DNA of 64,000 nucleotides from Marsupella aquatica (taxonomy: Eukaryota; Plantae; Marchantiophyta), in the NCBI GenBank assembly GCA_973895155.1, contig OZ316891.1, positions 22,085,168 through 22,149,167 of the forward strand, in the 5' to 3' direction. The notes below the pieces were generated by a model. That model saw only the letters and a program-made list of their open reading frames with translations. It made no database searches and was not told the origin of the DNA. Shown here piece after piece: positions 9,946-50,746 of the stretch (position 1 is the first letter of the stretch; each line of letters starts with the position of its first letter). Made by a program: the position numbers and the translations under genes.

Positions 9946-10737
9946 CCAAGCTATCTTCGTTGGTGTTTCAGGACTGTGAAAATGGTTGCGACGCATGCAG
10001 ACTGAGCTAGAAAATCTCGTTGCGCTAAAAGCAACACCAACGGACATCGCAGAGCGGGAAGGACGATAGCACAACGGTACAGTCAATTGAAACAATAAAA
10101 ATACCTTTTCAACTGACAATTGCTGAAAGGAACGAGCACCTGGCCACCGCTGGAGTGTCCAACTAAATAAATCGGGTGGTTCTCGTCCAACTCGTGAGAG
10201 TGTCCTGAAATTACGCCACCATCCAAGTTTAGATGCCACACTCTAGCTTGGAACCCCAGTAGTCTTCATCCCGCCTTCTAATTGAAAGGCGAAACGAACA
10301 CTGAGGGCAGGCGGCCGGTCCCGTGGGCAGGCTAAGGAAGAAAATATTAGCATACTCTTTAATTGAGATATTACGCACATATGACCAGAACTATTGAAAA
10401 TCAAATACAAACAAAGGACTTTTAGGTCCTTCTAGAACTAATATAACCAAGATGTGTCTATACCGCACATGGTTGACACATCCAAGATGGTCTTAGGGAA
10501 AGAAGATAATCAAGGGAATGCCAACCACCGACGAGTACCCAGTTGTATAGGGACAAAATATAGCATCGGAGAGACGATGATCCCTTTTTAGACTCACCCA
10601 TCTTGACTGCTCACTTAGATCGAGAGGCTCATAATACACAACACTCTGGGCCTGCTCCAAAGGGCAACCACAATATGAATATCAAACAACGGGACATTGG
10701 AATAATAACGTCTTGATCCTAACGGGCGGCCCCCTTC

Positions 10738-12171: not shown

Positions 12172-12213
12172 TGAGGTACCAAAAACTGTCGGTCTTCTTC
12201 GTCCTCAATCTCC

Positions 12214-18570: not shown

Positions 18571-18906
18571 GGGTATAACCACCGTGACAGCAAACAGCAA
18601 ATAGCAAATAGTTACTCGTAACAGCAAACGGGTGGTAAAATTTTTGGAATTTTTTTGGAATTTTTTTTGGGGAAAAAATATTTAAAAAAAATTCCAAATT
18701 TTTGGCTAGCGCCCGGAGCTAGTAATAGTATCGCCTTACATTAGCCAAAAATTGTCATGTTTTAAATTATTTTGAAAATTGTGACTTTTAATGACACATT
18801 TTTAGATTGTCTAGTTTGCTCGTAACAGTAAATTTTTGCTCGTAACAGGAAAATTTTTGCTCGTAACAGTAAATCTGTTTGCTATTTGCTGTCACGGTGA
18901 AAACCC
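18571..18906. mobile_element. MITE (Mutator-like family, related to 39039-39395)
   Basis: Long imperfect TIRs caccgtgacagcaaa.agcaaa / tttgctatttgctgtcacggtg, GGGT...ACCC termini and an AT-rich core with gctagcgccc shared with the 39-kb MITE. No clear TSD. Confidence 0.75.
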
Positions 18907-19224
18907 TCATTTTGGTGCAAATTATGTTAGAAAGAAACGAGAAAAATACCAATACTATTCTCCTATTTTCTCTCATGGTTCGTTACAAATATTGTTCTAG
19001 GGATAAGTCTGCCTGGCCTTTCATTATTGGTGACATTTTTCCTTAAACACTAGAATGGGCTTGTAAGTGTCACCATGCATTTTATGTGCCCAACTGTTCA
19101 CTCTTGCAGCAAATCCCACACTCCTCAAAATCCAATTGCCAACTGTACTTTCTGCTCATCTAACTTATGTTTGATAACACTTTCACTCAACATCACTCAC
19201 TATTGAAAATACTATGCAGCACAT

Positions 19225-19581
19225 TGTCATGCCGAGGGACAGTGCCTCTTATGCGCATCGGCATGTCCCTCGCATGCCCGCTAGGTATGTAGTTAGGGCT
19301 AGTGTACTACTTGAGTTAGCAACATATTCTTATAGCAAATTCCAGGCGTTCTTGAAACAAACGCGCTTGTTAGTGTGCCGCCAGGACTTTGTTTACTTAG
19401 GGCATGTCTTTCTTTGCCATTTCTCAGTTCTTCTTGAATCGCTGTTGACAGAGCTCAGACAGTGCTCGTCGGTTCCGTACACGGGATTCACACAGTGATT
19501 CGTTAGATGCTCCCGGCCGATCTTGGCATCTCGCCGATTTCGATTCGATTTCAGTACGCTTGTTTCTCTTACGCCTTTTAT
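19225..19581 (+). repeat. E1 repeat A1
   Basis: Matches 27826-28182 with about 10 mismatches counted by eye, all transitions. Confidence 0.95.
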
Positions 19582-19593
19582 TCAAGAAGAACT
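19582..19593 (+). promoter_or_regulatory. E1 putative self-priming primer-binding site
   Basis: TCAAGAAGAACT directly after A1 is the exact reverse complement of AGTTCTTCTTGA at 19426-19437 inside A1. Confidence 0.75.
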
Positions 19594-22500
19594 GCCAAGT
19601 TAGTGGTGAGGAGAAGAAGATTGCTCGTGGCAATTTCAACAATTTCTGATGAAGCTGGTGCAATTTCTATGGAAAAAATGCTGAGCGATGGGGTGGAAGT
19701 TATGACTTTGAGTGTATACACTTAAATCAAACAAGCCCCCCTCCCTCGTTTTCCTTTGTGTTTTTGCCCAGGCTTTTCTTTTCCGGCCGCAACCTGTTTC
19801 GCGACTTGCTGTTATCGATTGCCGCATCTACGCTGACTGCTGCATCGATGCCGATTGCACAGGGCGCACGCGCGCTTGCGTTTTTAACGACCTTTTTGGG
19901 GCCCTTTTTTGTTTACCGGCCATGACTGCCTCGGCCACCGCGCGCCCCTTTTCTTTGTCCTTTTTTGCCTTGCCAAGCCTCGAAGTTCCTCCCTCCGTTT
20001 GTTTTCCTGCCTTTATCTCGCAGGTTGTGCGTATAGGGCATTGTGCCTTCCACTGCCAGCATTTAATTAAGGAGAGGAGGGGGAGCAAGTACAAGCCGGG
20101 AGTCGAGGAGAAGGCACGGAGGCCTATGAGCATTAAAGCAGGGGGGAGGGGGAGCCGAGGCTGGAACGCAAGGAGAGGAGGGGGACTGGCAGGAGCGAGT
20201 GTGCCAAGAGAGGGCACGAGGCCCTATGCTGAATTAAAGAGGGGGAGTCCACATTCAATTCCCTTCTTGGGAGGCCCACAGTGCATTAACGAAGGGGGGG
20301 AGTTTACGTAGACTCCTTTCGGGAGTCCTCTTGCAGGGCACGAGGCCCCTTTCACAACATTAAAGAAAAGAGGGGGGGTACAATCGACTCCCTTCTCTCG
20401 GGAGTACTTTGGGAGCTCATACGGAGGGGGCGTGAAGCCCTATGCAGGGCTCATGCCAGTAAGAGGGCAAACACACTCGCCTTGGCTTCTCTCCTCTTTC
20501 CGGCCACCTGCGAGCCTGCCTCGACTATTTTCCCCTTTTTCGGCCTTTCTCATTTTTTTTGCCACGCCACGATCGACCTGCTGCCAGTTCCCGGGTCCAC
20601 ATAGGGCCGATGTGTATACACTTAGGGGGCCCCTTTCACGTGTTGCAGGGCCCATTTCTTTCCGTTTGCTCTTGCTTTGTTCTTGACTACCTGCATAGGG
20701 CACCGTGCCGGCCGGTCCTTCCTTTTTCGGGTCCACATAGGGGCCCGACGTATACACTTTAAAGGGGCCCAATGTATACACTTAAGGGGGACCCTATTCA
20801 CATTTTCAAGGGCCCATTCTTCCTTTATTTCTTTGATGCCGCCACATGTCATCTGCATAGACTTTGACAATTTCTCAGCGCTTACACATTCTACACATTG
20901 CTGCCTTGCACCGTTTGTTTCCTTTGTGGGTTTTATTTCTTAGCCTTGGGGCTGCCACTCCTTTTTCTTGTCAATTTCTTTCCCATTGGCACCCCGGGTG
21001 AGCATGCAGCATGTCAGCCGACGAGCCAGGAGGTAGCAGCTCATCACCACCAACACCCCGGTACCACTTACGGAGTGATCCACGACCCTTGGTGCCAATT
21101 TCATTGGAGTCTCGGCAATTTTGACGACGTCCGTAGACAGCAACAGCACCCACACCACGCAATCCTTCTGCTCAATTTGGCGGTTGCTTCACCACTACCC
21201 CGAAGCCTGCTATCACTTCCTTGCCATTTACGCCTTCTACATCAGTGGTTGTTCCAGCTTCACCGACATACACCATGGATGTTAGCCACTCATCTGGCCG
21301 CATTGAGAGCTTCAGCGGGCGGCCAGGCACTGTTTCTTTGTGTGAGTTCAAATCCACTTTCTACACTATCATTTACGAATTGGAGTTGAAGTACGGCAGC
21401 AATTTCACAAATGCTTTTGCATTTAAGCAGCTAGCTAGGTATGTGCACCATGAGGCTTTGGATGTGTATGAGCAACACTCTCAACGGCTGCTTGCTGTCA
21501 CACAATTGCCTAATCCTACCTATGCTAGTGCAATTGCAGCTGCCTCACAACTGGCATTACAGAATGCCGTTGCAGCCCATGCTGCTACTTCCCCTCCTAC
21601 TCCAATTCCTACCACTGCGCCAGTTACTCCCACTGTCTTGGCACAGGCTACATCAGGCATTTCTCCCACTATTGATTCCCCTGCCTTTGTTGATCCAGTA
21701 GCTGAGTTTTTCCAGGTTCTTGAATTGGAATTCCCAATCAAGAGTGCTGACAAAATCATGCAGTTGGCCACCTTTGTGAGGCAGCGCGATGAAACATTGA
21801 AGATGATGTATTGCCAGCTTCTCAAGCTGAAGGAGGACACCCAGAGCATCACTGACCTGGAAGTTGCTCATCGCTATCTTCGCGCATTGGAGGGCACACC
21901 AGCTCTCCATTTGCAAGTGTTGCAGCAAGTATTCTCAGAGTTTGGAGACAGCTACACCCTGCTCAATGTCTATGACACTGCTGAGAAACTTGAGTTGGCC
22001 CATGCACATTATGAGGCCAGTATTGCACATCCACCGCGATCCAAGTACCAGGCTGCTGCCCCTACACTGGCCACTCCTTCCCGTGTGCCACAATATGGTT
22101 CCAAGACCAAGCCAGCCCATGTTGCTTTCATGCTGCCATCTTGCAACTACTGTGGTAACCCCAATCACAAGGCTAATGAATGTGATATTGTTGTTGAGGA
22201 CCTGTCTTATGATTTTTGCGGGAAAGTGGGCCATTTGGAGGCAGTTTGTTTTGCCAAATTCCCAAAGAGGAAGCAGCTATGACAACAAACCCCTCATCCT
22301 GCTCCTGCTTCCACTCCCCCACCAGCTAGGAGGGCTCCTACTACATCAGTTGCTCCTCCTTCCAGTGGCAAAGCATCCAGTGCTAACAAATTGCCCAAGC
22401 AGCAACAGAAGCAACCAGCTCAGAAGGAGGCTCACAACGCACAGACAACTCAACTCCAGTCTCTGACTCATGAGGTTGAGTCATTACGTGCCCAACTTGC

Positions 22501-24049
22501 CAACATCAAAGGCAAGTCCACTGCCTCTGCTGGTCCTTCTCAACTGGCTGGTCACGTGCAACCCATCCCTGGCCCAGGCACCACTGACAGTTCAGCACCC
22601 ATACCCCACTCTTTCTATGGCTTGCCATTTGATGCTCATATGGGTGAGTGTGTGCTGTCCTCTGCTACACAGCCTGGCCTTACAGCAGAATTTTCAGATT
22701 CATTCTACCCTTCCTATTTTGCTTACCAACAGGCCAGTGCTGCCTCCCGTATTGCTCCCACACGCCGCATTGTACAGGCTGATGGTCTTGCTGCCGGTCC
22801 TATGACTAGAGCCAGGGGAGCTCGGGCTGTCATGCCCCAATCTTTTCAGCCACTCACACTTGCTGAAGAGAGCACCTTGTTGGTGAGGGGGGAGGGAGCT
22901 GCAGCTACATCCATTCCACCACCAGGTGCTACTGACATTTTACAGGGAGTTGTTTCTCCTCAGCTGCTTGAGCATTTCACCTCCGGTATGACACAAAGGA
23001 TTCTTACAACTCCACTTTTCAGTTGCCATGATTTACAGCTGGATGCTAGAGCTGTCATCAGAGCGCTAGAGGGCTCACTGCATTCTTCATCAGCCCTTGT
23101 GACACCAGTTTTGGAGGTCCAATCTTATGTACATACTGGACCTTCTTCTTCTCCATTACATGCTTCCACTGGTTTGGCTAACCCAGTACCAATTTCCAGT
23201 GGTAGTGATGACAGTATTGCTGCAGACTGTGTGACCAAAGCTACACTGGATTCTGGTCATGCTGCTTCATCATTTGCCAAAAGTGGTGCCTAGTGACAGG
23301 ACTTTAGTTTCCACCACCATTGCCATTGTTGACAACAGGAATTCAGCAGTCAAGTTGGAGGGTCACACTCCTCAGGTGGTCATGCTAGACACAAGCGCTC
23401 AACCAGTGATCTTGGGCATTTAGTTTGCCAAGAAGATGGGACTACTGACTGATCATTTACAGCGATCCAGGTGGCACATTCGGACTGCTAGTGGCACTAT
23501 GGAGGATGTGCTGGGTGAGAGTTCTACTTTACTCACTCTCACTTTTAATGGAGGTACAGATCAGGAACTGCATTTCCCAGTCAGATTTTTGGTTACCAAT
23601 GCCACTACGTATGATGTGCTCATTGGCCAGGAGGCTTTGTTCCCACCAGGTTTTACCATTGACAACTGGCATGAGCATGCATACTACAGAGTTGATTGGC
23701 ATACTGATGGCTCACACTTGGGCTACATTCCACTTGATTTTCATGGTGCCCATACACCTATGGCTCACCACTGTGTGTTGAAAGAAGTGCACACAGCTAC
23801 CTATGTCAACCACCCATTGCAGGATTGAATTGAGGAGGATGACGATGAGGTGGCTGTTGCACATGCTGCTACACGTATAGCAGCACTTTCCAGCAACGTG
23901 GATCATCAACCAGAGGTGGTACAATGGCTCCAAGCAGCCCATGGACCTTTAGTGGCTGCATTGCACAAATTTGAGGACCTTGGGCAGCACACTGGACAAC
24001 CAATAGCCCCAATCTTGAGCGCACCTGTTACATGGACTCCTCCTCCAGA

Positions 24050-24250
24050 TGGCCTTACATTGCTTGAGCTTTTTGGTGGCCTGGTTTATCGACATTCTAC
24101 CGGTACATGGGATGAACCTAGTCCTGAGGAAAGAGAACGGGCTATGGGCTTCCAACCCGGTACTACAGGTCACACCAAAATCACCAGGCTGGCCAGGAAT
24201 GCTTTACTTGGCAGGGTAATAGATCTCAATGCTCTCACTTGGCTTCTGGT
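24050..24250 (+). pseudogene. E1 remnant C5-DNA-methyltransferase (motif I fused to motifs IX-X)
   Basis: TLLELFGG|LVYRHSTGTWDEPSPEERERAMGF...LLGRVIDLNALTW aligns with the start and end of the E2 DNMT domain. Confidence 0.8.
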
Positions 24251-27200
24251 CACTTGCATCCTTTTTCAGATGTACATTCATCCAGCATCAGGAGTTCTAG
24301 CCCTACCACTCCATGGTGTTCTTACATGGCATCCAGACCAGGTGCACTTACCTCTATTCAACACTCACCGCTTCAGTCCAAGTGTTGGGGGGGAGGAGGT
24401 CCCTTGTAATGTGGCTGACATTATTTCTGAGTTTCATGGTGTGGATCAGACCAGAGCAACAAGTACAACAGGCCTTGGAGAGGCCTCATCACATTATCAG
24501 CAGCATGCTAGCAGCTTGGACAGTGGAGAGGCTGGCACTTCTGGCTCTTCAAGCACGAGTACATCAGGTCCTATTCCTAGTGTTGCGAACTACACATTCA
24601 TCATGGGCAACCACCTGAGTAAAAGGCAGAAGGACCAGCTGCTGAATTTGCTCCTCAAGCATGAGAATGTGTTTGCTTTCTCTATGAAGGACTTGGGTAA
24701 GTGCAAGACTATGCAGTTCTCCATTGAGTTGGCTGATGAAACACCTATCTTCAGGCAGAGACACCGTTTGAGTAAGCATGAGTGGCAGCTGGTGGATGAG
24801 AGGTGCCAAGAGCTCTATGAAGTTGGTCTTATTCAGCCATCTACATCAGATTTTGCGGCAGCTACAGTGATGCCAGCAAAGAAGGATTCCAGTGGATTGT
24901 GGACAGAGAAGCGCATGTGTGGGGACTACAGGCCATTGAACCTGGTCACACCCCAGGACAGGTACCCCATGTCGCGGCCAGAGGAGCTATTTGACAGCAT
25001 TGGAGACTCAGACATCTTCACTATTGTGGATCTAAGGCAAGGCTTCAACCAGATTTTGCTGCTTGCAAAGGACCGCAAGAAAACAACTTAATTTCCATGG
25101 TAGTAACCAACTATGGGAGTGGTTGGTGATGCCATTTGGCTTGAAGAATGCGCCCATATTCTTTCAAAGAGTCATGGACCAGGTTCTTCAAGGTGCTGAG
25201 TTTCTGAAATGCTACATTGATGATGTGTTGGTCCACAGCAAAGGATTTGACCAGCATCTACTTGACCTTGAGGAGCTATTCATGAGGCTTAAGAAGGTGA
25301 ACCTAAAGATACACCCCAAGAAGTGTGAATTTGCTGTCAGATCAGTAGTATATCTTGGGCATCGCATTCTTCCAAATGGAACCATGGCTCACTGGGCCAA
25401 GGTGGTATCCATCTTGGAAATGCCCACTCCTACCGATGTTCACACTTTGAGGCGTTTTATTGGGTTGTGCAATTACTACCGGATCTACATCAAAGATTTC
25501 AGTACCATTGCACACCCATTATGTGCTTTGTTGAAAAAGAATGTGACTTGGACATGGAGTGCACATGCTAAGGCAGCATTTGCCACTTTGAAGGAGAAGC
25601 TCTCAGAATACCCGGTGCTGAGAAGACCTGATTTCAGCAAGGTCTTTGTGCTACACACAGATTGGAGTGCCCTTGGGATTGGTGCCATTCTGGGCCAGCA
25701 TGATGAGGAAGGTAAAGAGTACGTCATTGCCTATGCATCCAGGAGCAACAATCAAGCAGAGAGTCATTATTCTTCTTATGAGGGTGAATGCCTTGCTGTT
25801 GTGTGGGCTGTCATACATTACAGGCCCTACCTCTATGGGACCAGGTTTGTTCTCTACACCGACCACCAGCCCTTGAAGTGGTTGATGACCAACGACAAGC
25901 TTACTGGCAAGCTTGCTCGTTGGGCACTCATACTCCAGGAGTATGATTTTGAGGTAATTCATAGGCCTGGTGTGACACATCAAAATGCTGACACTATGTC
26001 CCACAGCCCTTTGATTGCCTCTGATGATCCCTCAGATGCACGGCAGGATTTTGACCAGGTTTCCATCCTGCCTACATTTCATGCATCTACCTATCTTGCT
26101 TTGCTGCCATGCTACATCGTTGACCAACCTGTGGTGGACATATGGAAGGACAGCGACACTCTGAGATTTTTGTAGCATGGGGAGTACCCCACCCATGTTA
26201 CTGCTGCCCAGAGAGACCGAATTCAGTAAAGGTCCAAGCGCTACTTGTGGAAGGGAGATCATCTTGTGCGCTGCTTGCCAGACAGGGAAGTGGTGGTTCC
26301 ACCCATTCATGAGAGGGTTGGCCTTACCCGTAAGGTACATTCTGAGCTTGGTCATTTTGGTGTTAAGAGGACTTATAGCCTCTTGGTCCCCCATTATCAT
26401 TGGAAAGGCATGCATGGCCAGGTTCGAGATGTTATTGCCCGGTGTGAGCAGTGTGATAGGGTAAGGACTTCTTTCACATCTCGGCAACCCACACTTCATC
26501 CACTCCCTATTCAGGGCATGTTTTATTGTTGGTCATGTGATTTGGCTGGAGAATTACCCCTCACATCTTGGGGTAATCTCTACATCATGATCATGATAGA
26601 GCATTTCTCCAAGTGGATAGAACTTGTGGCATTGCCGGATAAGACCTCCCGTAGCACCAGCCAAGCATTCCTACAACAAGTTCTCAGCCGCTTTGGAGCT
26701 TGTGCAGAATGTCTCACTGACCAGGGCTCAGAGTTTAGAGGAGAGTTCCAGGAGCTGCTTGATCAGGCCCTCATTGATCATCGCTGGACATCACGAGATC
26801 ACCCACAGGCAGATGGCTTGGCAGAGCGCATGGTTCAGACATGCAAGAAGGGCCTTTGGAAGATCTGCCTCACCAAAAACAAGGAGGATTGGGACCTGGC
26901 CTTACCCTACATTACCATGGGGTATAGGATGTCTAGACATGCATCACTGTCTAACTTTTCTCCCTACTTCTTGTTGTTTGGTCGTCACCCAGTTCCACCT
27001 TCTGCTATTGCTGCTCACATGCTTCAGGTGGTGGACTTGGATTCAGCTGTGACTTGGTCTGATGTGATCTCTGAGAGGGCTGCCCTATTCAGGAGGGTTA
27101 TGCCCATGGCCATGGAGAATTTGGCCATTGCACAGCACAGGGACACATTGCATTATGCACACACACGACGGGGCACTTTTCAGCCCAAGGTCAGGAAGTT

Positions 27201-27455
27201 TGATGTGGGAGATTTTGTGTACTTGCAGCGGCAAGCTAACGACACCCTAGACACCTCTACCAGTCGTACTATTCTCAAGGTTAAAGCTATTCGACCGTCT
27301 GGAGTGCTGACAGGTCAAAGCGGTCGAATAGCGTCTGGAGTGTTGACAATAAGCGCATAATTGTTGACAATGCCAAGAACTGCGCCCCTTGTCATCTGCC
27401 TAACCTGGATCCCACCATTGTGACTTCTACTTGGATTCCACCTGTGGACTACCCT

Positions 27456-27590
27456 TGCAAAGTGTGTTTGCGAATTGATGATGCTGACCAGATGCTGCTG
27501 TGTGACAATTGCAATGGAGGGTACCATCTTTTCTGCCTTTGGCCTGAACTTACTCAGGTGCCAAAAGGATTATGGTTTTGCCCTTCCTGT
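27456..27590 (+). other. E1 PHD finger at integrase C-terminus
   Basis: CKVC...MLLCDNCNGGYHLFCL.P....PKGLWFCPSC is a canonical C4HC3. Confidence 0.92.
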
Positions 27591-27640
27591 GCTCCACGTG
27601 CTACCTGACTTTTCTTCAGCCCTCCTTTTGGCTGTGGTCT

Positions 27641-27647
27641 GGGGGGG
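27641..27647 (+). promoter_or_regulatory. E1 putative polypurine tract
   Basis: G7 immediately precedes the first base of repeat B1. Confidence 0.6.
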
Positions 27648-28358
27648 ATACAGAGGTTTACACCTCCACTACGTACATACCACCTCATTTGCTTTTTCTT
27701 GGCACTTGTAAATGTGATGAGACTTTTTCTATGCATGTTGGTTGCTAGCAGCTTGCACATGTGCATTGCCAGTGCTTTGTATGTTTTTGATACACTATGG
27801 CTACGATACTATATGTCACGACAGCTGTCATGCCGAGGGACAGTGCCTCTTATGCGCATCGGCATGTCCCTCGCATGCCCGCTAGGTATGTAGTTAGGGC
27901 TAGTGTACTACTTGAGTTAGCGACATGTTCTTATAGCAAATTCCAGGCGTTCTTGAAGCAAACGCGCTTGTTAGTGTGCCGCCGGGACTTTGTTTACTTA
28001 GGGCATGTCTTTCTTTGCCATTTCTCAATTCTTCTTGAATCGCTGTTGACAGAGCTCAGACAGTGCTTGTTGGTTCCGTACACGGGATTCACACAGTGAT
28101 TCGTTAGATGCTCCCGGCCGATCTTGGCATCTCGCCGGTTTCGATTTGATTTCAGTATGCTTGTTTCTCTTACGCCTTTTATATACAGAGGTTTACACCT
28201 CCATTACGTACATACCACCTCATTTGCTTTTTCTTGGCACTTGTAAATGTGATGAGACTTTTTCTATGCATGTTGGTTGCTAGCAGCTTGCACATGTGCA
28301 TTGCCAGTGCTTTGTATGTTTTTGATACACTATGGCTACGATACTATATGTCATGACA
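27648..28358 (+). repeat. E1 3' repeat block B1(27648-27823)-GC-A2(27826-28182)-B2(28183-28358)
   Basis: B1 and B2 are near-identical 176-bp repeats (atacagagg...tgtca(c/t)gaca). The junction reads GACA-GC-TGTC. Confidence 0.95.
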
Positions 28359-28459
28359 ACATTAAAATATTGGGCTAGTTCATTTTGAAAAGATTAACCA
28401 AAGTCCAAAGGGGTGAAAGCAAAGGTCTAAAGAGGACAAATCCCAACCTAAATGTCGAT

Positions 28460-28792
28460 TGTCACACCATTATGAGTGGTAGTATAGGATATCGGACTAT
28501 GTAGGTTTGAGGCTTTCATATGTGTGTTATCTAAGTATTTTAGGGTTAATGTATGTTTGTGAGGGATAGTTATATATCTCTAAGTTGTGTTGGCTCAAAG
28601 GTCTCATCTTTTGATGTTGAGCCTTTCGAGCACAAACTCTAGCGGCTATGGTGTGGCTGTCTAGGTTGTGTGTACGTAACGTGGATTCCTTGAGGCAGAA
28701 GGTGCGTTTGGCTTGACATAAGTGTGTGATCGCGTCGGGCAGGATTGTGTGTTGGATTAGCATCAATCATTGTTTGATTGCTCTTGAAGATT
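28460..28792 (+). repeat. E2 repeat A1 (contains TATATAT at 28571 and putative transcript start ~28606)
   Basis: Near-identical to 50747-51076. Confidence 0.95.
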
Positions 28793-28804
28793 ACATCAAA
28801 AGAT
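28793..28804 (+). promoter_or_regulatory. E2 putative self-priming primer-binding site
   Basis: ACATCAAAAGAT directly after A1 is the exact reverse complement of ATCTTTTGATGT at 28606-28617. Confidence 0.75.
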
Positions 28805-31499: not shown

Positions 31500-34400
31500 T
31501 GTCGCGTCCCTAACCCAGGCCTTAAATCCAGTTTAGTTCCATGGCGCGACTTTGACCACCAGTAAGGGTGAGGGTTCGGGCAAGGAGGTGTGTAGCGGCC
31601 TCGATTAGCCCCTAGTCGGGCTAATGTAATATACTTACGGGTATAACCCTTACGCAATTCGTACTAGTCATAGGTATATTTGTTTTCCACCGCTGGAATT
31701 TTCCCACAGTTAGTGACTCGGACTAACTCCCGGCTTGGGGCTTTCAAGCCATCGACGCAACAGAACCTTGTGACATGCAATGGGTGGCAATCCCTACCAT
31801 TAGTCTGCACCCGGTACGTCCCTTGAAATGACGCCTTTGCCCAGACAAAGCATACACACAACACCAGTTACTCGCAGAAACATTATAGGGAAAAGACTAC
31901 ATTTACTCAGCAAAGCATCAGTTTACATGGTTGACTCGACTTCTAAGGGGGTCAACAGGCCCAACGGCAGTCAATGCCCAGTCTCTACGAGGCCCCGCCT
32001 TGCACTTGCTCGACAAGCTCGACTCTGGCTCTCACTCCTTGGTGCGCTCTGACCCTGCTCAGGCCGGAACTCCCCGTGTCTCGCCTTTTCTTCTACTAAG
32101 ATAACTAAGCCTTCTCCCCCTCCCATAGCGGAAGGGGAAGCCTAAATACTACGGTTGCGGAAGGAAACCGGAGGATACTACCTTCTGGGATAATACCTAC
32201 TGACTAACTACCTATTGACTAACTACCTTCTGACTAGTTGACCGTCGTCAACAAGGGTGCTGACCGACATGGCAGCAGCAAAGCCTACTGACAACAAGCT
32301 AGTCCGTTGATGGACTCCATCCTACGTTGGCTGATCCTAACTGATTTGGTCCTAACTCTTCCTACTGCCGCTAATCGGCGCCTAATGACGGCTATTCTGT
32401 CGTTACGCCTGACCAGAAGATGCCGCTGACTCAACTGCCTTGCGTGGCGCCTGCTCCCACCCTTCGCTAAGCACCTCTTACGTGTGTGCTGTGGTCGGAC
32501 CAAGGTTTGTCCCCCTGTCGAGGCGAGACCTCGAGCCGTCTTGATCAGAGGTGGGCCCAGGTTTTCCCCTTTGGAGGACAAGTAGGGTAACGCGATCCTG
32601 CAAGGCCTTGTTGTCCCGTACCGCCGCCTCTGCCTCATTTGCGGCTTCATCGGCTTTTGTCTGGAGCCAAGCTACCTCCAGGTTGAGCTGGGTGATGGAG
32701 TTGCGATGGGCCTGGTCCTGCGCCCGCAATTTATCCCGTTCGGCGGAGAGACTAGCCACCTGCTGAGCCGCCTGCATGAATTGGTTGTTGAGGTCGATTA
32801 GGCTGGTAACCCGAGCCGAGGATTCTGAGCGCAATTGAAGCACAGTATCATTCAGCTTCTTGAGATCTTCTTGTGCCCCGCTCAACTCCTGGGTTAGTCC
32901 GTCTCGCTGTTCGATGGTGCAAACTAACTCCTCACGGCGGGTAGTGGCCTCCTCCTCGAGGTGTTCTACTAGCATTTGGAGGCGCCCGATCTCATTCCCT
33001 TTGGCCATGAGTTCTTCTTCCAAGCGGCTTACGATCCGGGGTTGGTGCTCTAACATGAAGAAGGCTGGTTGAAAGTACGTCGAGACTTGTTGTCCGATGT
33101 ACGTTGCCAGCTCCCCAGACATAGTCTGGCTATACTTCTGGACCAGGTCGTAGGCCATGGTCCCCGGGGCTACGTGGTAGTCCTCCATCCTCTCGGGTAC
33201 TGGTGGTTCCTCAGTCGGGGCAACGATCTCCTTCGTAGTCTGCGCTGGGGAGGGGAAGGTTTCTTTCGGTGGTGGAGGGATTGGGGGTGGTTGCACTGCG
33301 GGTAGCGGAGGCTCGACGGAAGGGGGCGGCGGAATCACAACAGGAGGAGGTGGCGGAGTATTAGTCGGGGCCTCCGCTGTTTAGGGTTTTCCCGAGGGAT
33401 GGTAGTCCGTGCACTCGGGGTTGCCTCCTCTGGGGTGGGGGTGACATTAGTCGGGGCTGAGGTGGCCATATTCTTTCCTTTGGCCTCCCGCCGTGCCTTG
33501 TACCAGGCGAGGATGATGGCGATATGACTTCCCAAGTAAGTCTTCCCCCCAATAGCCATACCACTTTGAGCCCGCTTCAGCTCCCCCGAGAATCTACGAT
33601 AAAAGAACTGGGCCCAGTTCCGCCATTTGTACTGTTCCACCTGCACGATCGTGCAGAGGGAGATCTCGGATTGTGGCTCAATCATGTGTAGGGTAGTCCG
33701 TATGAAGTTAAGCCGCTCCATGCAGATTAAGTTGGTGCACGACCCCTGCTTGTATCCGTTGTCCGTCTTACCCTCGGGTTTGAAGTGCCGCGGTGTATAC
33801 TCCTTATCCTGAATTTGGAGTTTGACCGGCACCGGCCCAGTTGGCAGGCAGAAGATCTGTGCTAGCCGATGCTCCGTGAGTGTTAAGGTCTACCCTGAAA
33901 CCTTGGTGGTCAATGCGTCAGAGTCGAAATTGGACATGAACTCGCAAATCTGCTTTGGCCCGGCGGCGCACGGTCTCCATAGCAAGTGAGCAAACTGCTC
34001 CAACTGATGCTCCTTGAGATAGTCCGCGTGTTTGAGTTTCTTGATCGAGATCCAGACTACTTTGGGGACGTAGATCACCTGTAATAAGTTGGACTTTGGG
34101 TTATCCGGGGGCCGCCGGGTCTGGTTGGCCGGGGGGTTTGTCGGGGAAGGTGTAGGCGCGGTGTTGGTTTGCGTTGTCGATTCGGGGACCGGCGTCGTCC
34201 TTGCCCGCTTATGAGAACGCTGCTCGAGTTGCGGACTAACTTGCTCGGAACCCAAAAAACACACGGCGTTGATTACTGGACGGACTTGAGGCCGGTTCGG
34301 AGGTACGCCGGTGGTCATCAACTAAGGTGCTGGGGGTGGTGCCGGGGTAGCCATATCCCAGTTGAAGGCGTTGGAGCTTTCCCCGAGGAATGTAAGATTA

Positions 34401-35334: not shown

Positions 35335-36439
35335 CGTTACCCGTGTCATATGTTGCAACAAGGATGGCAAGTACCTTGCTGGGGGCGGCCACAAATATTG
35401 TGCGCACCTCGTTATTTTCAGCAACATATATGGCATTGGGAGTTAGTCCAGCTGAAGTGTTCAGATTGGCAGCCACATTATGTGAAGGAACTCCAGTTGT
35501 TCCTTCTCGTGCATAGACAGTGCCTAATTCTGAAGTTGTGGAGTTGACTCCACCTATTGCTAGTGGTGAAACATGGCAAGCAGCAGCGGCGAGGTTGATG
35601 GAGTTACCAGCACGCCCTGCCTTTGAGAGAACTAGGTTTAAACCTAGTGTGGTATCATTGGATAATCAAAGTGGTATCTTCCGATTAGTTGGGCCTTTTG
35701 GAGCGATATACCAGCCAGAACGAGTGTTATTGGATACTGGTGCTCAGCCCTTGATGTTGGGTAAGACTGCGATACAAGGATTGGGATGCGTCCAAATGAT
35801 TTGGAGGAGTGTCCCTTTCCCATTCAGACTTCATTGGGAGGACCTACACCCAAACAACATATCACCAAACGAGCACTTGAACTTAGGATTCAAGAGGATC
35901 ATCCAAAGGATAACTCACGGATCCAGGCTCAAGCTATTTTGACTAAGGCTGAGTCATATGATGTGTTAGTGGGATGTACGATACTTTATCCTATGGGATT
36001 TGTTCCTAATTTTTGGGATGAGTCGGTGTCGTATCGACCCGATTGGCAATCTGGAGATGCTTGGTTGAGCCAATTGCAAGTGGGATTTAGTGGACCTGTG
36101 GGAGGTCCTAAATCTGCACCATTGTCTTTGGCAGCATTCAGTAGTTTGATTATTGGATTTGATGAGTTGATTAAAGGTAATGCACATGCAGCAGATGTTT
36201 CGGCAATGGAGGAGCCACGTGAGGAACACATGACGGGTGTATTACTTGTTGATACTATTGTGGCACCAGTACGGGGTACTGGAGAGGCCTTGCAACAAAA
36301 TGTGACCCAATTGATACATGATGCCTGACGTCATGCTTTTACACCGGAGTCAGGAGCACAACAGTCTTTTGCAGATGGACCGGTAACCCTTTCACCATTG
36401 GATACCACTCCTATTGTGTGGTAGTATCCAGAGGAGGGT

Positions 36440-37440
36440 ATTTGTTTGTTAGATTTATTTTGTGGGATTGGCACTGGATTGGCTGCTATTCTTCAAGCAG
36501 GAATTTATGTGCGTCGTTACTTGTACGTGGAAAACAATGAGATAACACGGAGGATCTCACTATGTCATGTAGCGATGTTGGTGGAACGTTATCCACATTT
36601 GTTGCCAGTGGATGCCATTCGTGGTTATCAGCATGCACTACCTGCTGATATTTCATTATTGGGGCGGATCATTTGGATTGTGTTGGCCCCATTGATTTGG
36701 TGATTGCGGGTTGGCCATGTCAGGGTCAATCTCGGGCTAGAATTGGACATGGATTTCAAGATCCAAGATCTACATTATTTTGGGAGATGTTACGTGTGTT
36801 GCGCCATCTCCAGATGCATCAGACACATTCTCCTACATACATTTTGGAGAATGTCCCATTATTGGGTGATGATCGTCATCGAATTGTTGCTAGTGTTCAT
36901 CAGGTTCGATCTTGGATTGGGCCTGTTGTGTTATTGGATGCTGCACGTGTGGGTTCTCGTGCACATTGCCCACGATTATGGCGGACTAACTTGTTACCAT
37001 GTGAGGTCTTAAAGTGAGCATTTGATGGTGTACCTCGCTCAACAATCTTAGTGGTGGATAGTATTTTGGATCCAGGGCGTCGTGCACAAAGTGTTACCCA
37101 ATCTGATCAACCACCATTGGCAGTGGTGAATGTTGTTGGGCGTCCACGTTGTGCATTACCCACTTTTGTGAGCCATTCTGCTTCATACGCATTTTGAGCA
37201 AGTGGCCCTGGACTTGTGTGGGATACAGCTCTACAAAAACTAGTAGAGCCTACCGCTAATGAGAGAGAGCGGCTATGGGATTTTTGAAAAAAAAATTAAA
37301 AAATTAAAAATAAAAATAAAAATGAGAGAGAGCGGGCTATGGGATTTTTGACCAGCACCACGGCAGTGGCCTCGGTGTCAAAGCATTCACGTTGTTAGGT
37401 CCTTGGTCAAACCATGGATTTGAATTGCTTGACTTGGATA
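36440..37440 (+). pseudogene. C5-cytosine DNA methyltransferase domain inside the E2 pol
   Basis: Motif I LDLFCGIG, II YVE, III DI, IV DLVIAGWPCQG.S, V DPRSTLF, VI YILENV, VIII SRAH.PRLW.TN, IX ERERAMGF and X VLGQTMD appear in canonical order. Confidence 0.93.
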
Positions 37441-37659
37441 ATCAGCTTGGGATTAGCTGAACAATTGCGAATGCGCAGTTCTAATGTTACAGATCGTCCA
37501 TTGGTGAGCTTGCGGCCTACCGAGACAGTAGCGGCCACAGTTGGGGGCGAGCAGACGATTGATAGACCTATGGCAGGATTGGCCAAGGCAAAACATTTTG
37601 TTGAGAAAAAGGAGGTTGCTCAAACCATTGATAAATAGCAACGAGCGACTGTCTCTTCC

Positions 37660-39038: not shown

Positions 39039-39395
39039 GGGTATTTACAAACGACAGAAAACAGCAAACAGTAACAGCAAACAGAAACTGGTAACAGGAA
39101 AATGAGTGGTAATTTTTTTTGAATTTTTTTTGAATTTTTTTTTTGGAGAAAAATTATTTTTTTTTTCAAATTTTCAAATTTTTTTTGCTAGCGCCCAAAG
39201 CTAGCCAAAAAATGTTGTAATTTAATTTTTTTGGGGAAAATATGACTTTTTAGAAAATATTTTGACATGGTTGTTTTTCTTGGTAATAGTAACTTTTTGC
39301 TGGTAACAGTAACTTTTTGTTGGTAACAGGAAAATTTTGCTGGTACCAATAAACCTGTTTCCTGTTTACTGATTTCTGTCACGCATGCCATACCC
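39039..39395. mobile_element. Mutator-like MITE
   Basis: GGGTAT...ATACCC termini with imperfect long TIRs. 9-bp TSD CTCAATTAG at 39030-39038 and 39396-39404. Confidence 0.85.
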
Positions 39396-42208
39396 CTCAA
39401 TTAGTGGGTTAAATTAGTTTTAGGTTAGAGTTTTTCTTTTTTGTTTTAGTAAGCATATTATGCCTGTAAATGAATGGGAAGTAGAAGTGAAATTGAAGTA
39501 AACTCTCTTCAGTAAAACAGAGTAAGAAAGTTTCATTAGTTTAAACCACGGTTAACTTAACAATGGATTAGTGGATTAGATAGGTAATCAGATCCTTAGA
39601 GTTTGTAATTTAGGCTGAGATTTTTTCTGAAGGTTCTAGGCAGGCCCTGGAGAACCCTTGTAAAAGTGCAAGTCATTTCGACCATTCAATTAGAAGCTAT
39701 TTACAGTGGAACAAAACTTAAAATAGCCAACTTGCAGGACGTAGGGGAAATAGCCAGAGAGCAACAAATGTATTTTGAAGGCTGGCCATGGTGTTACTAT
39801 ACCTAACACTATCCCTTAGAATTACTAAACCTAGTTTTGGACTTATAGATACTTTTTGGGAGTGGTCCGAATTCTGTAAAAGTAGCTATGAAGTATGACG
39901 GATTGCAGACTTTGAACAATTATAGAAAAGCCAAGTTTAGTTATATATCAATTCTAAGAATTGTTTTAGAAAGCTCTAGGACTAGGAAATCCAGGAGTAT
40001 GTTCATAATAGTTTTTTTTCCTTATGAGTGAATTTTGAACTATAGGCAAAGATGGCTAATGTTAAATGCCATAAGTAGCACTTAAAGGGAGACTTAAAGA
40101 GAGGAATGTTCTTTGTGCATACAAAGGGGTAATTCAGCTGCATAGAGAAACATGGTGGACTCATTTACATCTGTAAAGGGCAGGGTTACAATGTTAAAAA
40201 GCTAGCTAAGGCCAGGTGTCGAGCCCAAAATTCAATAGAGCAAAATCAAAGTAAAATTGAAGGGAGAATGGAACTCAACGCTGCGGCTGAATGGAGAGCC
40301 AATACTCCACCAAATCAAGTAAGAAGAACTGGGCTCGAATGCTGGGCTCAAGGAGAATCAGAAGACCTGAACTAGAAGAGGAAATCCTGGAGCACGAATT
40401 AAAGGAGGAGATTGAAGGGAAAGCAAAGGTTGGAAGGGAAATTAATAGAGAAGATTGAAATTTCTGAATCAGAGAGAATATTTTACAGAAAGGAGAAGTC
40501 ATTGACTGCTAACAAGGGGGCTCTTCAGGCAAAATCAAGGGCGAAATCAACTTGCACCTTCTATAGGAACTTAGAGGTGGCACCATGGAGCAGCTAGAAG
40601 ACCATTTCCTCAGCTAGGGCGATTGACAAGAAATCTGAGCTGTGGCCCTTAACTTCAGGAATTGAATGCAGGATCAAGTCCATAGATATATTCTGAAATT
40701 AGAATGACTGCTCTTTGGACTTCAGGAATTGAATGCAGGATCAAGTCCATAGGTATATTTCTGAAATTAGAATGGCTGCTCTTTGGACTCACAAATTGAA
40801 TGCTACCAAGGTCAACCGACAGTCGAGAGAAGAACACATGGAAGGGAAATATTTTCGTGAGAATGAAGGGCTGGTCTGAACGGAAGCACTGGCCAGACTT
40901 CCTTCAAATAACCCACGATCCCTTCAAAAAAGTTCAGTTCTCTAAGTCCTAGCTTAGTTCTCTCCTTGCTCCAAACTGAATCAGGCAGTCGACTCCGCCA
41001 TAGATTGGAAGCATTCATTCTCCTATTTCCATGAGTTCTTTCTCTCCGTTCACCCATGCACTTACTATCAAGACCAGGGCTTATATTTCACAGGAGTACT
41101 GGGCCTTTACGTTTGTAGTCTCACGGGGTTACTATTTGGCTTTATACACCTGAGTTTACACAGGCAGGGTCAGGCAAACCAAGTTTACACAAGTAACTAA
41201 GCCTTGAGATAAGGCTGACCCTAGTTTAAAGTGATGATATTGATGGGTTCTGCTGAAACCTGAATAACTCGCTCAGTTTAGACTCAATTGGAGTACTTTT
41301 AAATGCATTGGAAAGCTATTGACGGTGGCTAGAGGTTGGCATGAGCTAGGAGGATTGAGAGTTCATTAAGATTCTCCTGGAAATCAGGTTCTATAACAGT
41401 TTGATTTTTGCTGACTACTTGAGAGGTTTTGATCGTGGTTACACTCTAAAAGGAGGTCAAGTGGGACTACAATCAAAGTGCATGGCTGATCCCAGAGTTC
41501 CTGATCCAAGAGGGCTGCCTGATCAGCATTTTCCTCCCCTGGTCCACAAGGCTAAGTTCACCTTGTGGAGTAAGCATGGGAGAACACATGCTGACCCCAA
41601 CATTTGGCTGACCCAATACCTAGCTTGCTCAAAGGTGGACAGAGGGGCAGAAGTTCAAATTTGAGGGCTTTCACCAAGGTGTACCTCAAGTATTTCAGAG
41701 AGGACAACCAAATTACCAAGCCACTAACCAGTACGGTAAGGAAGTACCATGCTTGGGTCATTCGCAAGGCCCTAATCGGATGGGTGAGGCCTGGAGAATG
41801 GCTCTTTTATGTCAAGGGGACCTAGGCTGGTTCTGGAGTCCAGGAATAAGGAGGTTAAGGAGTGGAGTCCTTAAAGCCAACATGGAGGGTACCTAAGGAC
41901 CTGAGTTACATGGAGACTTTGGAGGAACTTGGAGGGCCATTGGAAGTTGATCCCTCTACTGTTTTTAGAGCTATTTGGTAGATAGGGATGACTGTATTTT
42001 GGAGGCTGATTTAGTCCCTGATTTGGAAGGATAGGACAGCCAAGTCAGGAGGTGAGGTGGACCTGAATGAAGGGCTGAAATCAAGGAGTTGATTTAGGCT
42101 TTCAAAAGGCCACCAACTAGCTCATTAGTTAGGTAAGACACACAAGTGAGTTAGTGAGTTAGTTAGGAGGATAAGTAAGGATCTTTGACCCCCTTGAAAG
42201 GTGGGCTA

Positions 42209-43043
42209 CCGTCTTCCCCCGAACACAACGCCGGGGTGCTATATTCGAATAGTGGGTCAAGGGGTGCTATATTTGAATAGTGCGCCCTAGGCGTTGTGTT
42301 CAAATTTTTTGACATGGTTTTGGATTTTTTTCACTAGTGGCGCTGTGTTCAAAAATGTCGTTGTGTTCAAAAATAGCATTGTGTTTGAGTTTGACGTTGT
42401 GTTTGAGTATAGGCCTTTGTGTACAAGGGTAGGAGATTAATGTATTGTGTAAGCACTAACTGAAGTCTTAAATAAAGTGTTTGCGAATGTGTAGGTAATT
42501 CAAACACTGAAATTACACAAGGGAAGCTAAGAGAACAGACCTTGCAAATCACAAGTACCATAAATTTATGACAATCAACAATATTCTAAAAATTGTTCCA
42601 AAACATCACTATTGTCAACTTAGTGCATGTCATACCATAATACAATTGTTTGGTTGCCTCAAACAATAAAAAATGCCTAACAGCACAATAAAATAACATA
42701 ACCAAGGAGACTTGGACAAGTTGTCTACTATGTGTTCTGAGCTTTTGCTTGATAAATTGTTGCTACATGCTGCAAAACCTATGGACTGCCTACTTCATTT
42801 GTTCAGTTTCAAATGTACACTACCTACCAAAATATGATCTCACATACAGCCAATGCCAACACTGTGCTGCGCCAACTTTGAAAGTATGTGCCAACTTCAA
42901 ACACAACGCCAAACTCAAACACAGTGCCCGGGCGTTGTGTTAATCCAATGCTGTGTTTGAATAAAAACCACTTTTTATTTTTAGGGCCCAAAAAAAGTCA
43001 TATTCGAACACAACGCCCGGGCGTTGTGTTCGGGGGAAGACAA
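42209..43043. mobile_element. Tc1/mariner(pogo)-like MITE
   Basis: TIR (cc)gtcttcccccgaacacaacgcc / ggcgttgtgttcgggggaagac(aa), flanked by TA on both sides, with internal subterminal repeats. Confidence 0.85.
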
Positions 43044-43727
43044 TAGTCTTTTTTTAGTGGTGAGTCACTTGCTGGCCTTTGGGGTGGTTTTGGACTTTGT
43101 GATGAGTTGGAGCCAAGCAAGGAGTACTTAAGTTGGTGTGAATTACTTTGTGTGGGTCCAAGTATAGAGAATCAAGTAGTAGCACTAAGAGACCTTAGGG
43201 GAACTAAGGTAGATGTTCTAGGGGTACTAGAACTCAAGTGTGTGCCTTGAGGCTTGAAAGGACCATAGTGTTAAGTAGTAGGAGTTGAAGAAGCTAAAGT
43301 ATAGCAAGTAGGTAGTGACAACCTACCCATGTACTTCCTTTGAAATTCTTATGAAATTTCAGCGCGTTTTTGGGAAAGAAATTGTTGATGTGCACTCATC
43401 TGAAATTTTGAGGCCCTTGTGGTCTAGCATGTTGCTCATATATGATCTTTGTGAGTCCAGAAGTCTTCTCTTTGGGTAGGGGAGACCTAGATTAGTTGTC
43501 TTGCCGGGTAGGGTCACATTTCCAATGGTGGAAACCAAAGAATACCCATTTCTGGTGACGAAAACCAAATACATCTGCATAGTCTCAAGGAGAAGCAAAG
43601 GCTTAATGGAAATAGAGGTAGTTTTTTCTTATGGAGCGTCCCTCTCGTAGTTCATGGTGATAAAGAGCTATCAAGTGCAAGCTTTTAGTACAATAAGGCT
43701 TATTAGCTCAGAAGCAAGGGTCTGACA

Positions 43728-45921
43728 CATATGCCAGTAGATCAAACAATTCAGCAGAGGCTAAGTATAGCTCGTATGAGGGAGAGTGTTTGGCAGTTGT
43801 GTGGGCTGTGGCACATTTCCGTTGCTATTTGTTTGGTAATCCGTTCACCTTGATCACTGATCACCAGCCCCTCAAGTGGTTAAGGGAGTCTAACAAGCTT
43901 ACAGGAAAGCTTGCACGATGGGCATTGTTGTTACAAGAGTATGATTTCCTCGGGGGTTTCACTTCCACAAAAATGGCATATCACGTGCAACAAAGGATAG
44001 GGTCATTTTATTGGTTCTAAGGGAAGACTTAAGAATTTTTTGTAGAAGAACAATAGGGTCTTTTAAATTTAATTTTGAGACTTATAAGAACATTAGGGTC
44101 TTTTTAATTCAATTTTTAGAATATTCCAAGAATATTCCAACTTTATAGGGGTTAAAAAATAAAAATAAATTCTTACATTTTAGGGGGTCCGAGGCCTAAA
44201 AACGTCGCAGGCGATGGGGAGGTCCCCATATAGTGAGACCCCCGAGATGATTTCCAGGTTGTACATAGGCCTGGTAAAGTGAACTTGGATGCGGATGGGT
44301 TGAGCCGTAATCCATGTACCAGTCAAGAGGATGAGACTGGAGCTCGATGGCATGATGAGTTGGATAAGGAGAGTGTGCCAGGATGGCATGCATCTGCCTT
44401 TCTTTGTTGGGTTCCAACATATAGTGGATCTATGGACTCTACTTCATTGGATGGGGTAGACGTTGAGTCTTCAGATATGGATGTTGATGAGGTAGTTTTT
44501 GGGCAGCAAGATATTCAGATCCATTGTTGGCAATTGTGATGCTAAAGAGCAAGATAGGGTTCTACAATGAGCCAAGAGGTTTTGATGGGAAGGAAACCAT
44601 CTTTTGAGGATACTACGTGATGGCAAGGTGTTGGTTGTACCAAAACCGTCACAACGAGTACGTTTGGTGTGACATGCGCACAAGGAGTTGGGTCACTTTG
44701 GTGTGAAATGCACATATAGCTTGTTGTAGACACAGTATTGGTGGTGTGGTATGCGCACTGATGTCCAACAATTGATTGCTAAGTGTGTGGTATGTGATCG
44801 AGTGCGAGCATCGTTCAATGCTCCCACTCCCCAATTGCATCTGTTATCCATAATGGGTTTGGGATATTGATGGAGTTTGGACTTTGCTGGTCCATTACCT
44901 CTTACCCAACGTCACAATCGATATGTTTTGGTTATGGTGGAGCACTTTTCCAAGTGGATTGAACTAGTGGCATTGCCAGATAAAGCTAGTGGAGGAGTGG
45001 CTATCACATTTTTGGATCAAGTACTCAGTCATTTTGGAGCACCAGCTGAGGTGTTGACTAATCAGGGCATGGAATTCCGTGGAGAGTTTGAGGGTTTGTG
45101 TGAGCAAGCTCTTATTGATCATCGTACTATTTCTTGTGATCATCCTGAGGCAGATGGATTGGCAGAGAGAGTTGTACAAACCGTGAAGAGAGGAATCTTG
45201 CGTAAGTATGGCTTGCAGGTTGGTCATTTGGGAGATTGAGATCTCCAGCTACCTTGGTTAGCTATGGGCTACCGTTTCAGTCGACAAGCATCACTTGCAT
45301 CCTTCTCACCTTATTTCATGCTCTATGGTATAGAGAGCCAGATTTGCCAACGACTATTCGTTGTGATGTGGCAATTGTTGTGGATTTGGATGATCCCGAT
45401 GTTTGGGTCAAGATGTGTTCCAAAAGGGCACGAGTTTTTGAGAGAGTCATGCCCATGGCCTTTGACAACCTTGCCATTGCCCAACATTGTGATACTTTGA
45501 GGTATGCCACTATTTACAGAGGAGGTTATCGTGCGAGGATTTGACAGTTTCATCCTGGTGATTTGTTTATTTGCAGCAAACAACACCCACAACACTTGAT
45601 GTGACCGCAGGTCGGACAATCTTACGTGTGCGTGAAGTGTTGTCTTCTGGTGTCCTAATGTTGGAAGGACGTGATGGTATGGTTTGGAAGGATCATGTAC
45701 GTAATTGTGCACCATGTCATCTTTCAAACATTGATGGTACAGTAGATCCAAGCTTGGCTCAAGTTCATGCCGGCTTGAAGTGTATGTTGTGTGGATCTGC
45801 TCAAGGAGCAGCCACTATGTTGATTTGTGATAAGTGTTCTAGAGGATGGCACATGTCGTGTTTGACACCACCATTGGAGGTGATTCCTAGTGGATCATGG
45901 TTGTATCCTCAATGTCGGTGA
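43728..45921 (+). pseudogene. E2 RNaseH end-integrase-PHD region
   Basis: Motifs YEGECLAVVWAV, TDHQPLKW, HKELGHFG..CVVC, DFAGP, EHFSKWIE, PEADGLAERVV and PHD CMLC...LICDKCSRGWHMSCL.PP...PSGSWLYPQC (45781-45915). Confidence 0.92.
43949..44246. mobile_element. hAT-like MITE
   Basis: TIR ctcgggggtttcact / agtgagacccccgag with 8-bp TSD ATGATTTC. Removing it restores QEYDF-QVVHRPG. Confidence 0.88.
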
Positions 45922-46094
45922 AGCCGACTAGTTACCATTTGTGTTCTCATGGAAAGTATAGATTGCAGGAAGGTGATCGATGGGGCTCACTTGCACCCGG
46001 CCTCCTGATCTTCACACTTAAAAAGGTGTATATCAACCTTGTAGAACTTATGGCTAGCTAGAGTTAGGGGACCTCACTCCTAGCTAGGGGGCCG

Positions 46095-46231
46095 ATTGTG
46101 GGTTTTGGACATGTGTGGATAGGAGTTCCACTTACACTCCATTCTCTTATGTTTGTGATGTTGATTGTGACTATGCTTAGATATGTGTGACAAGCGATGT
46201 ATATTGTGTAGCGATGTTTATGCGCACGACA
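46095..46231 (+). repeat. E2 repeat B1
   Basis: Matches 51078-51214. It is preceded by AGGGGGCCG and followed by GC. Confidence 0.95.
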
Positions 46232-46234
46232 GCT

Positions 46235-50742: not shown

Positions 50743-50746
50743 CAGC

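Follow-up and report, generated by a model that had tools for sequence, protein, structure and literature searches.

The window analyzed here, a 64,000-nt stretch of DNA from Marsupella aquatica, contains two retrotransposons (E1 and E2) that work like Ty3/gypsy elements with a permuted LTR, and at the internal B1/A2 junction of each lies the palindrome GACA-GC-TGTC. This palindrome is the element's own right end (GACA) and left end (TGTC), fused via a GC spacer that is not present at the element termini. We consider it very probable that the palindrome serves as the attachment site of the integrase, by whatever route integration proceeds.

Two elements that carry a copy of their own joined ends

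Both elements have the same order, A1 - gag/PR/DNMT/RT/RH/DDE-integrase/PHD - B1-GC-A2-B2. E1 begins with TGTCA, finishes with TGACA, and has ACAT on each side. The features of the two elements, and of an insert (E3) that interrupts the junction of E2, are as follows (window coordinates, strand):

19221-19224, +: E1 left target duplication, ACAT
19225-19581, +: E1 repeat A1, starts TGTCA; 97% identity with A2
19425-19439, +: E1 predicted self-primer, 15-nt perfect complement of 19580-19594
19580-19594, +: E1 predicted primer-binding site, at the A1 end
21137-23293, +: E1 gag-like frames; weak zinc knuckle (E 0.0016, below the Pfam cut-off)
24027-24269, +: E1 C5 DNA methyltransferase remnant, domain mostly deleted
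25036-26175, +: E1 reverse transcriptase (C-terminal part) and RNase H; best solved relative Ty3
26230-27360, +: E1 DDE integrase; H2C2 zinc finger and rve core
27447-27605, +: E1 PHD finger, 3' of the integrase
27641-27647, +: E1 G-run, predicted polypurine tract, abuts B1
27648-27823, +: E1 repeat B1, ends GACA
27820-27829, +: E1 junction palindrome (spacer 27824-27825) formed by the B1 end and A2 start; predicted integrase site
27826-28182, +: E1 repeat A2, starts TGTC
28183-28358, +: E1 repeat B2, abuts A2; its GACA is the element end
28359-28362, +: E1 right target duplication, ACAT
28456-28459, +: E2 left target duplication, CGAT
28460-28792, +: E2 repeat A1, with a predicted self-primer inside (28606-28617)
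28793-28804, +: E2 predicted primer-binding site, 12-nt complement of 28606-28617
36413-37470, +: E2 C5 DNA methyltransferase domain, frameshifted
44871-45921, +: E2 integrase core and PHD finger, broken frames
46087-46091, +: E2 G-run, predicted polypurine tract
46095-46231, +: E2 repeat B1, ends GACA
46235-50742, unstranded: insert E3 (TG...CA) within the E2 junction; CAGCT duplicated at 46230-46234 and 50743-50747
50747-51076, +: E2 repeat A2, starts TGTC; an extra T (51077) precedes B2
51078-51214, +: E2 repeat B2; its GACA is the element end
51215-51218, +: E2 right target duplication, CGAT

Pfam matches were obtained in E1 for RT, RNase H, the H2C2 and rve parts of the integrase, and the PHD finger, and in E2 for the C5 DNA methylase (PF00145, E 5e-12), RT, RNase H, rve, and PHD. 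For the RT and the integrase alike, the best solved relative is Ty3. Named relatives of the E1 integrase come from Calypogeia (85% identity) and Klebsormidium (52-57%), those of the methylase from Marchantia, Sphagnum, and Calypogeia, and the element family is multi-copy in host sequencing runs.

The palindrome of E1 (GACAGCTGTC, window 27820-27829) occurs as a single exact copy in the window and straddles the boundary at which B1 ends (27823) and A2 starts (27826). Taken alone, the motif is at chance level, with two matches at no more than one mismatch compared to 2.03 expected in the window, where perfect 10-bp palindromes number 62. Its position is nevertheless beyond chance, since its halves are the termini of E1 and E2, where they adjoin exact 4-bp duplications. 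In E2, B1 ends with GACA at 46231 and A2 starts with TGTC at 50747, and the 10-mer is restored once the 4,508-bp TG...CA insert (46235-50742, with CAGCT duplicated) is discounted. The earlier note had placed the palindrome at the B1/A2 junction of both elements, and self-comparison, together with the repeat boundaries, confirmed this assignment (for E2, after removal of the insert). It had also remarked that the same 10-mer is kept although the surrounding repeats have diverged and, indeed, the LTRs of E1 and E2 have only this 14-nt stretch in common.

The insert, E3, has TG...CA ends and a 5-bp duplication, and holds two minus-strand frames (48443-49183 and 47336-48442), which had no Pfam match; the single frame that was searched had no database match. 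No homologue of E3 was found among 240 candidates, and neither a long internal repeat nor a primer-like complement near its ends was detected. A large solo LTR and a non-autonomous element are both possible identities for E3, which also shows a short match (74%) to window 52578-52661. The idea that E3 targeted the junction is unsupported, with 0 of 26 related junctions interrupted.

Several other features of the window were recorded. E2 begins ~100 bp past the end of E1 (28359-28459) in the same orientation, and the two integrases are only 54% alike; an insertion preference exerted via the PHD finger is a possible reading of this adjacency. Antisense frames, one of them coiled-coil-like, lie between gag and protease of E2 (32478-34321, minus strand), and no duplication-bounded insert was found around them. 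At 18587-18891, 39061-39371, and 42206-43046, the last two of which sit within E2 pol, lie a dispersed short repeat and an element whose inverted ends measure 46 bp; these are probably MITE-like inserts. Outside the elements, a 10-kb segment is duplicated (19-9946 and 53426-63385, 98.5% identity) and carries a HAT/TPR splicing-factor-like frame (7871-8971) and tandem repeats of roughly 486 bp, whilst a long single open frame with kelch repeats occupies 10738-12204 (minus strand).

A fixed junction and a variable join in related copies

The related set comprised 119 loci (1.15 Mb), including 33 distant-integrase loci (L087-L119). For the metagenome scan, the best 80 of 502 confirmed matches were grouped into 57 clusters at 96%. 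L010 and L063 were left out, since a shared flank marks them as insertions already represented by L008 and L050, and so were ten further clusters that were uninformative (contig ends or truncated B). Of the resulting 45 informative copies, 26 contain B1-NN-A2 and 19 stop after B1.

The exact 10-mer is found in 6 of the 119 related loci and in none of the 33 distant-integrase loci. Six families have it at the same position; their integrases share 42-71% identity, and the junction (13-17 nt) is almost the sole similarity of their LTRs. L081-L084, on contigs filed in prokaryote genome bins, have the exact 10-mer, within a palindrome of 20 bp in L083 and 16 bp in L084. L081 is apparently intact, with open frames of 1162 and 1047 aa that represent protease-DNMT and RT-RH-integrase-PHD, respectively, and with matches to protease, DNMT, RT, RH, H2C2, rve, and PHD. 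L081-L086 are plant or algal retrotransposons, and their placement in prokaryote bins is likely due to eukaryotic contamination. Matches to C5 DNMT were present in 38 of the loci L001-L086, and Marchantia proteins also combine DNMT with RT/RH. IMG/VR contained no integrase relative; 78 IMG/VR matches to the 14-nt junction pattern came without a Pol homologue and were treated as chance.

The spacer is 2 nt long in all 26 of the metagenome-family copies with a B1-NN-A2 junction. Its letters are GC in 4, AC in 9, GT in 6, AT in 6, and TC in 1, that is, GC or its transition products in 25 of the 26. The earlier note had asked whether both length and sequence of the spacer are conserved across copies; its length proved to be so, but its letters vary in old copies. 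The letters have changed at rates of 58% (G>A) and 46% (C>T), against a CTG-context background with a mean of 30% and a range of 12-73%. These changes are mostly the transitions expected from methylated CAG/CTG, and because the rates fall in the upper part of the background range, the letters may be somewhat free too.

Host sequencing runs gave the same boundaries. In four of them, 9, 13, 13, and 13 contigs that differ in their flanks stop precisely at 27823; in two, 6 and 11 contigs start precisely at 27826. No spacer indel was seen among the 12 of 14 host-run rows listed. Contig joints that skip part of A stem from diverged copies and were left out of these counts. The termini being the half-sites of the palindrome, the host contig ends, and the fixed spacer length all lend support to the proposal of the earlier note that the LTR carries a pre-built donor junction. 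Target duplications of E1 and E2 are exact 4-bp repeats flanking TG...CA ends; among the 8 complete relatives, 5 are exact, 2 have one transition, and 1 (L046, a full copy) has none.

The join between A2 and B2, at which the two ends of the predicted cDNA would meet, serves as a control and behaves differently from the B1/A2 spacer. It is readable in 24 of the 26 copies (L041 is without B2, and L032 stops at a contig edge), and is exact in 10 of them. The other 14, which deviate in the manner expected of end joining, include 7 without the shared AT (a 2-nt microhomology), 3 that are short by 1 nt, 2 with an additional 1-3 nt, and 2 with deletions of about 7 and 240 nt (L019, L023); the background indel rate is 0.0018 gap openings per site. 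One single-T variant of the A/B join was found in host run X1. On a tree of the 45 copies (with L026 scored as a deletion and L023 unlabelled), the join types are scattered, such that the exact class needs 8 changes for 10 rows, and one well-supported clade contains four different join outcomes. The tree is star-like, and the join labels cluster slightly (21 changes vs. 23.7 when shuffled, with 10 of 200 shuffles as low). B2 differs less from its own B1 (0.089) than from the B1 of other copies (0.122; n = 21, p = 5e-5), and its own B1 is the nearest in 8 of 21; gene conversion between neighbors could be another cause of this likeness. Given a fixed B1/A2 spacer, a variable A2/B2 join, and a B2 that is closer to its own B1, the B1/A2 junction is templated and fixed, whereas the A2/B2 join appears to be made anew.

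The 19 copies that end after B1 are one-repeat A-int-B copies with clean ends at ACA. Among the three whose 5' end is readable, the 4-bp duplication shows one transition in two and is missing from the third (L015). One-repeat copies (n = 19) and full copies (n = 26) have diverged to the same degree (0.111 vs. 0.112, p = 0.39), and equal ages fit the formation of one-repeat copies at insertion better than gradual loss; all of the copies are old. Where both ends are readable (n = 13, comprising 11 loci, E1, and E2), there are 10 full copies, 3 one-repeat copies, and no mirror copy (A-B-GC-A-int-B), with the proviso that mirrors could hide among the 16 one-repeat copies without a readable 5' end. 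Two copies stand apart. In L002 (1805-1927), the GACA end of B directly adjoins an internal piece of A in inverted orientation, as insertion into a sister copy or autointegration would produce. In L015 (near 2523), GC precedes the A start and there is no target duplication, unlike in the other copies.

Predicted priming signals, the proposed integration route, and its alternatives

A G-run lies just 5' of B1 in E1, E2, L079, L081, L082, L083, and L084, with the palindrome 53-173 nt downstream. In the five loci with the exact 10-mer for which the distance from the tract was measured, it is 53-172 nt, and L006 has the same arrangement. The sequence that follows A1 is perfectly complementary to a stretch within A, over 15 nt in E1 and 12 nt in E2; no other such pair of at least 11 nt occurs in the first 700 nt of either element. 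Relatives have a comparable complement (15 nt in L019, L046, and L070; 13 nt in L081; 12 nt in L084), but none of at least 11 nt was found in L082 or L083. The letters of the predicted primer and primer-binding site differ by family, yet complementarity is kept, with covariation in five families. Amongst 12 metagenome 5' ends, the 15-nt match is present in only 3; the other 9, which belong to old copies, have 6-11 nt. Minimum-energy folds of the 5' leaders of E1 and E2 did not form the primer-PBS duplex (z about -1.2). Read as usual, the tract before B1 and the primer site after A1 would make B-GC-A the replicative LTR, and the predicted cDNA would span from the B start to the A end, with neither TG nor CA at its ends. 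In four families, the A end and B start share letters (AT, ATT, AT, and CACTTGA; at window 19580/27648 and 28790/46095, in L079, and at L081:6948 and about 7414), which could help end joining or a template jump. The earlier reading of the junction had left out the features on which its meaning depends: where the tract and self-primer lie, the variation of the A2/B2 join, the existence of one-repeat copies, and the lack of mirrors.

We think it probable, judging from sequence comparisons, that integrase, rather than trimming the outer DNA ends, opens the palindrome that lies in the cDNA's 5' LTR, and that the B piece released in this way is attached to the far end. The transcript would start within A1 and prime itself as that of Tf1 does, and ordinary LTR reverse transcription would generate a linear (B-GC-A)-internal-(B-GC-A) cDNA with outer ends lacking TG/CA. 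Integrase would then bind the 5'-LTR palindrome and nick 3' of each CA, to give two CA-3'OH ends with 5'-GC overhangs. DDE integrases are enzymes that join CA-3'OH ends. The 5' LTR would become double-stranded long before the 3' LTR, which is presumably why only the 5'-LTR site would be cut. Both CA-3'OH ends would be inserted 4 bp apart, and the short B piece would be end-joined to the far A2 end, before or after strand transfer, to give A1-int-B1-GC-A2-B2. In an alternative repair, the two B copies would anneal and leave a one-repeat A-int-B copy. There are retroviral counterparts for parts of this scheme, in that HIV-1 integrase is described as cutting a palindromic LTR-LTR junction internally (PMC1905944) and 2-LTR circles have been argued to feed retroviral integration (PMC4372172).

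The alternative that survives best, though we regard it as unlikely, is that the ends are made by RT. Strand displacement would stop at the integrase-bound site, an end-to-end template jump would write B2 after A2, and integrase would cut one strand or none. Four families have short letter matches between the end of A and the start of B that suit such a jump, as do joins that lack 2 nt or gain 1 nt, and no mirror copies were seen. On the other hand, the join deletions of ~7 and 240 nt resemble resection, and the A-side end must still be freed from B-GC on the other strand. Somewhat more doubtful is an obligate intermediate in the form of a closed 2-LTR circle, with cleavage falling randomly on one or the other of its two palindromes. 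A circle would yield the observed order and a variable A2/B2 join, and it has a retroviral precedent (PMC4372172), but it predicts that mirrors are as frequent as normal copies, whereas 10 normal copies and 0 mirrors were seen (about p = 0.001 by hand).

We attach very little weight to replication in the manner of split-repeat DIRS/PAT elements, in which B2 would derive from a read-through transcript and a tyrosine recombinase would act in trans. The A-coding-B-A-B order is the same (PMC5890265), but this route is largely refuted by the 4-bp duplications and is also at odds with the TG...CA ends, the DDE integrase, and Ty3 as best solved relative. Moreover, the spacer is missing from the termini, the A2/B2 join varies, no recombinase match was obtained in the scanned frames, and a recombinase motif pattern gave 0 matches. 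Two independent insertions (A-int-B and an adjacent solo A-B), or an assembly artifact, can hardly be entertained, for although A-int-B copies do occur (19 of 45), the whole unit lies within one duplication in 9 of 10 complete copies (at most one transition), which refutes separate insertions, and all 26 copies keep the 2-nt spacing, the A1/A2 and B1/B2 divergences within copies are of the same order, and the structure is present in independent assemblies and families.

Returning to the opening of the 5'-LTR palindrome by integrase, we lean, by a modest margin of belief, toward a more general version. In a widespread green-plant clade of Metaviridae (bryophytes, Klebsormidium, and probably green algae), integration ends would be uncoupled from the ends made by reverse transcription; integrase would obligately open an LTR-internal palindrome, much like a restriction enzyme, host end joining would finish each insertion, and ~4 in 10 new copies would be born as dead one-repeat copies.

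Classification and comparison with known systems

E1 and E2 have the PR-RT-RH-IN order and DDE integrase of Ty3/gypsy (Metaviridae) elements. They also have the TG...CA ends and 4-6 bp duplication of that group, the duplication being exact in E1 and E2, and 7 of 8 complete relatives are within one transition. What they do not have is two complete terminal LTRs; instead, the 5' end carries A only and the 3' end B-GC-A-B. No chromodomain match was found after the integrase, where a PHD finger lies instead, and chromovirus identity was therefore rejected. Identity with split-repeat DIRS was likewise rejected, given that an rve integrase was found and the scanned frames gave no recombinase match. 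Troyka, with CG...CG termini and 3-bp duplications (PMC12440569), was rejected on account of the TG...CA ends and 4-bp duplications observed here.

The A-B-A-B Gypsy architecture is already published (KnitGypsy-Dnmt3; PMC5890265). In our literature search, with subscription journals and Repbase outside its coverage, no description of the palindrome, of the priming, or of the route of integration came up, and the accessible part of a 2026 preprint on methyltransferase-bearing retrotransposons (10.64898/2026.05.21.726589) does not mention the palindrome. The junction is a real feature of a known but unexplained architecture, and its integration route is likely new.

The present clade appears to depend on the internal-junction route. 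For retroviruses, productive use by integrase of an internal end-to-end junction has been argued for decades, and there it is a minor route. L081, with its apparently intact frames, and a 10-bp substrate offer a natural, non-pathogenic test system. The model would also explain, as convergence, the published Gypsy elements with DIRS-like repeats. These elements, plentiful in bryophyte genomes and equipped with a DNA methyltransferase, would likely be overlooked or mis-delimited by structure-based LTR finders. Among bacterial systems, IS3/IS911 have a DDE enzyme that opens abutted ends with a short spacer, as proposed here; they differ in being DNA transposons whose spacer comes from flanking donor DNA and which do not undergo reverse transcription.

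The closest described elements are KnitGypsy-Dnmt3 of Klebsormidium nitens, which have Gypsy domains, a C5 DNMT in Pol, and DIRS-like A-coding-B-A-B repeats (de Mendoza et al., 2018; PMC5890265). E1 and E2 probably belong to this group, an assignment made by shared features and by pairwise identity, K. nitens integrase-PHD proteins being 52-57% identical to the E1 integrase. The accessible text of that paper does not mention the junction, palindrome, circularity, or self-priming, and its sole target-site duplication concerns another element; its supplementary files gave no match for junction terms, and no mechanism is given there.

The self-priming Ty3/gypsy elements Tf1/Sushi and Tcn1 resemble those described here in having no tRNA site and, in the 5' repeat, a stretch complementary to a site just downstream (Neumann et al., 2019; PMC6317226). 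They are, however, described as ordinary two-LTR chromoviruses, whereas E1 and E2 have a PHD finger and ends that lie inside the LTR. The survey by Neumann et al. kept only elements with two LTRs, a duplication, and terminal TG/CA (PMC6317226), so that elements of the present kind were likely missed.

The integrases of HIV-1 and foamy virus are described as acting at an internal, symmetric end-to-end junction (PMC1905944, PMC4372172, PMC1180852), as is proposed here. In those viruses this is a side route and the junction is made fresh from cDNA ends, whereas the present junction is built into each LTR, and TG/CA ends appear to have no other source. Finally, the split-direct-repeat retroelements PAT, Ngaro, and VIPER share the A1-ORFs-B1-A2-B2 order and an internal copy of the joined termini, but encode a tyrosine recombinase (PMC7192593). 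Since the elements studied here have a DDE integrase and 4-bp duplications, their likeness to PAT, Ngaro, and VIPER is probably convergent.
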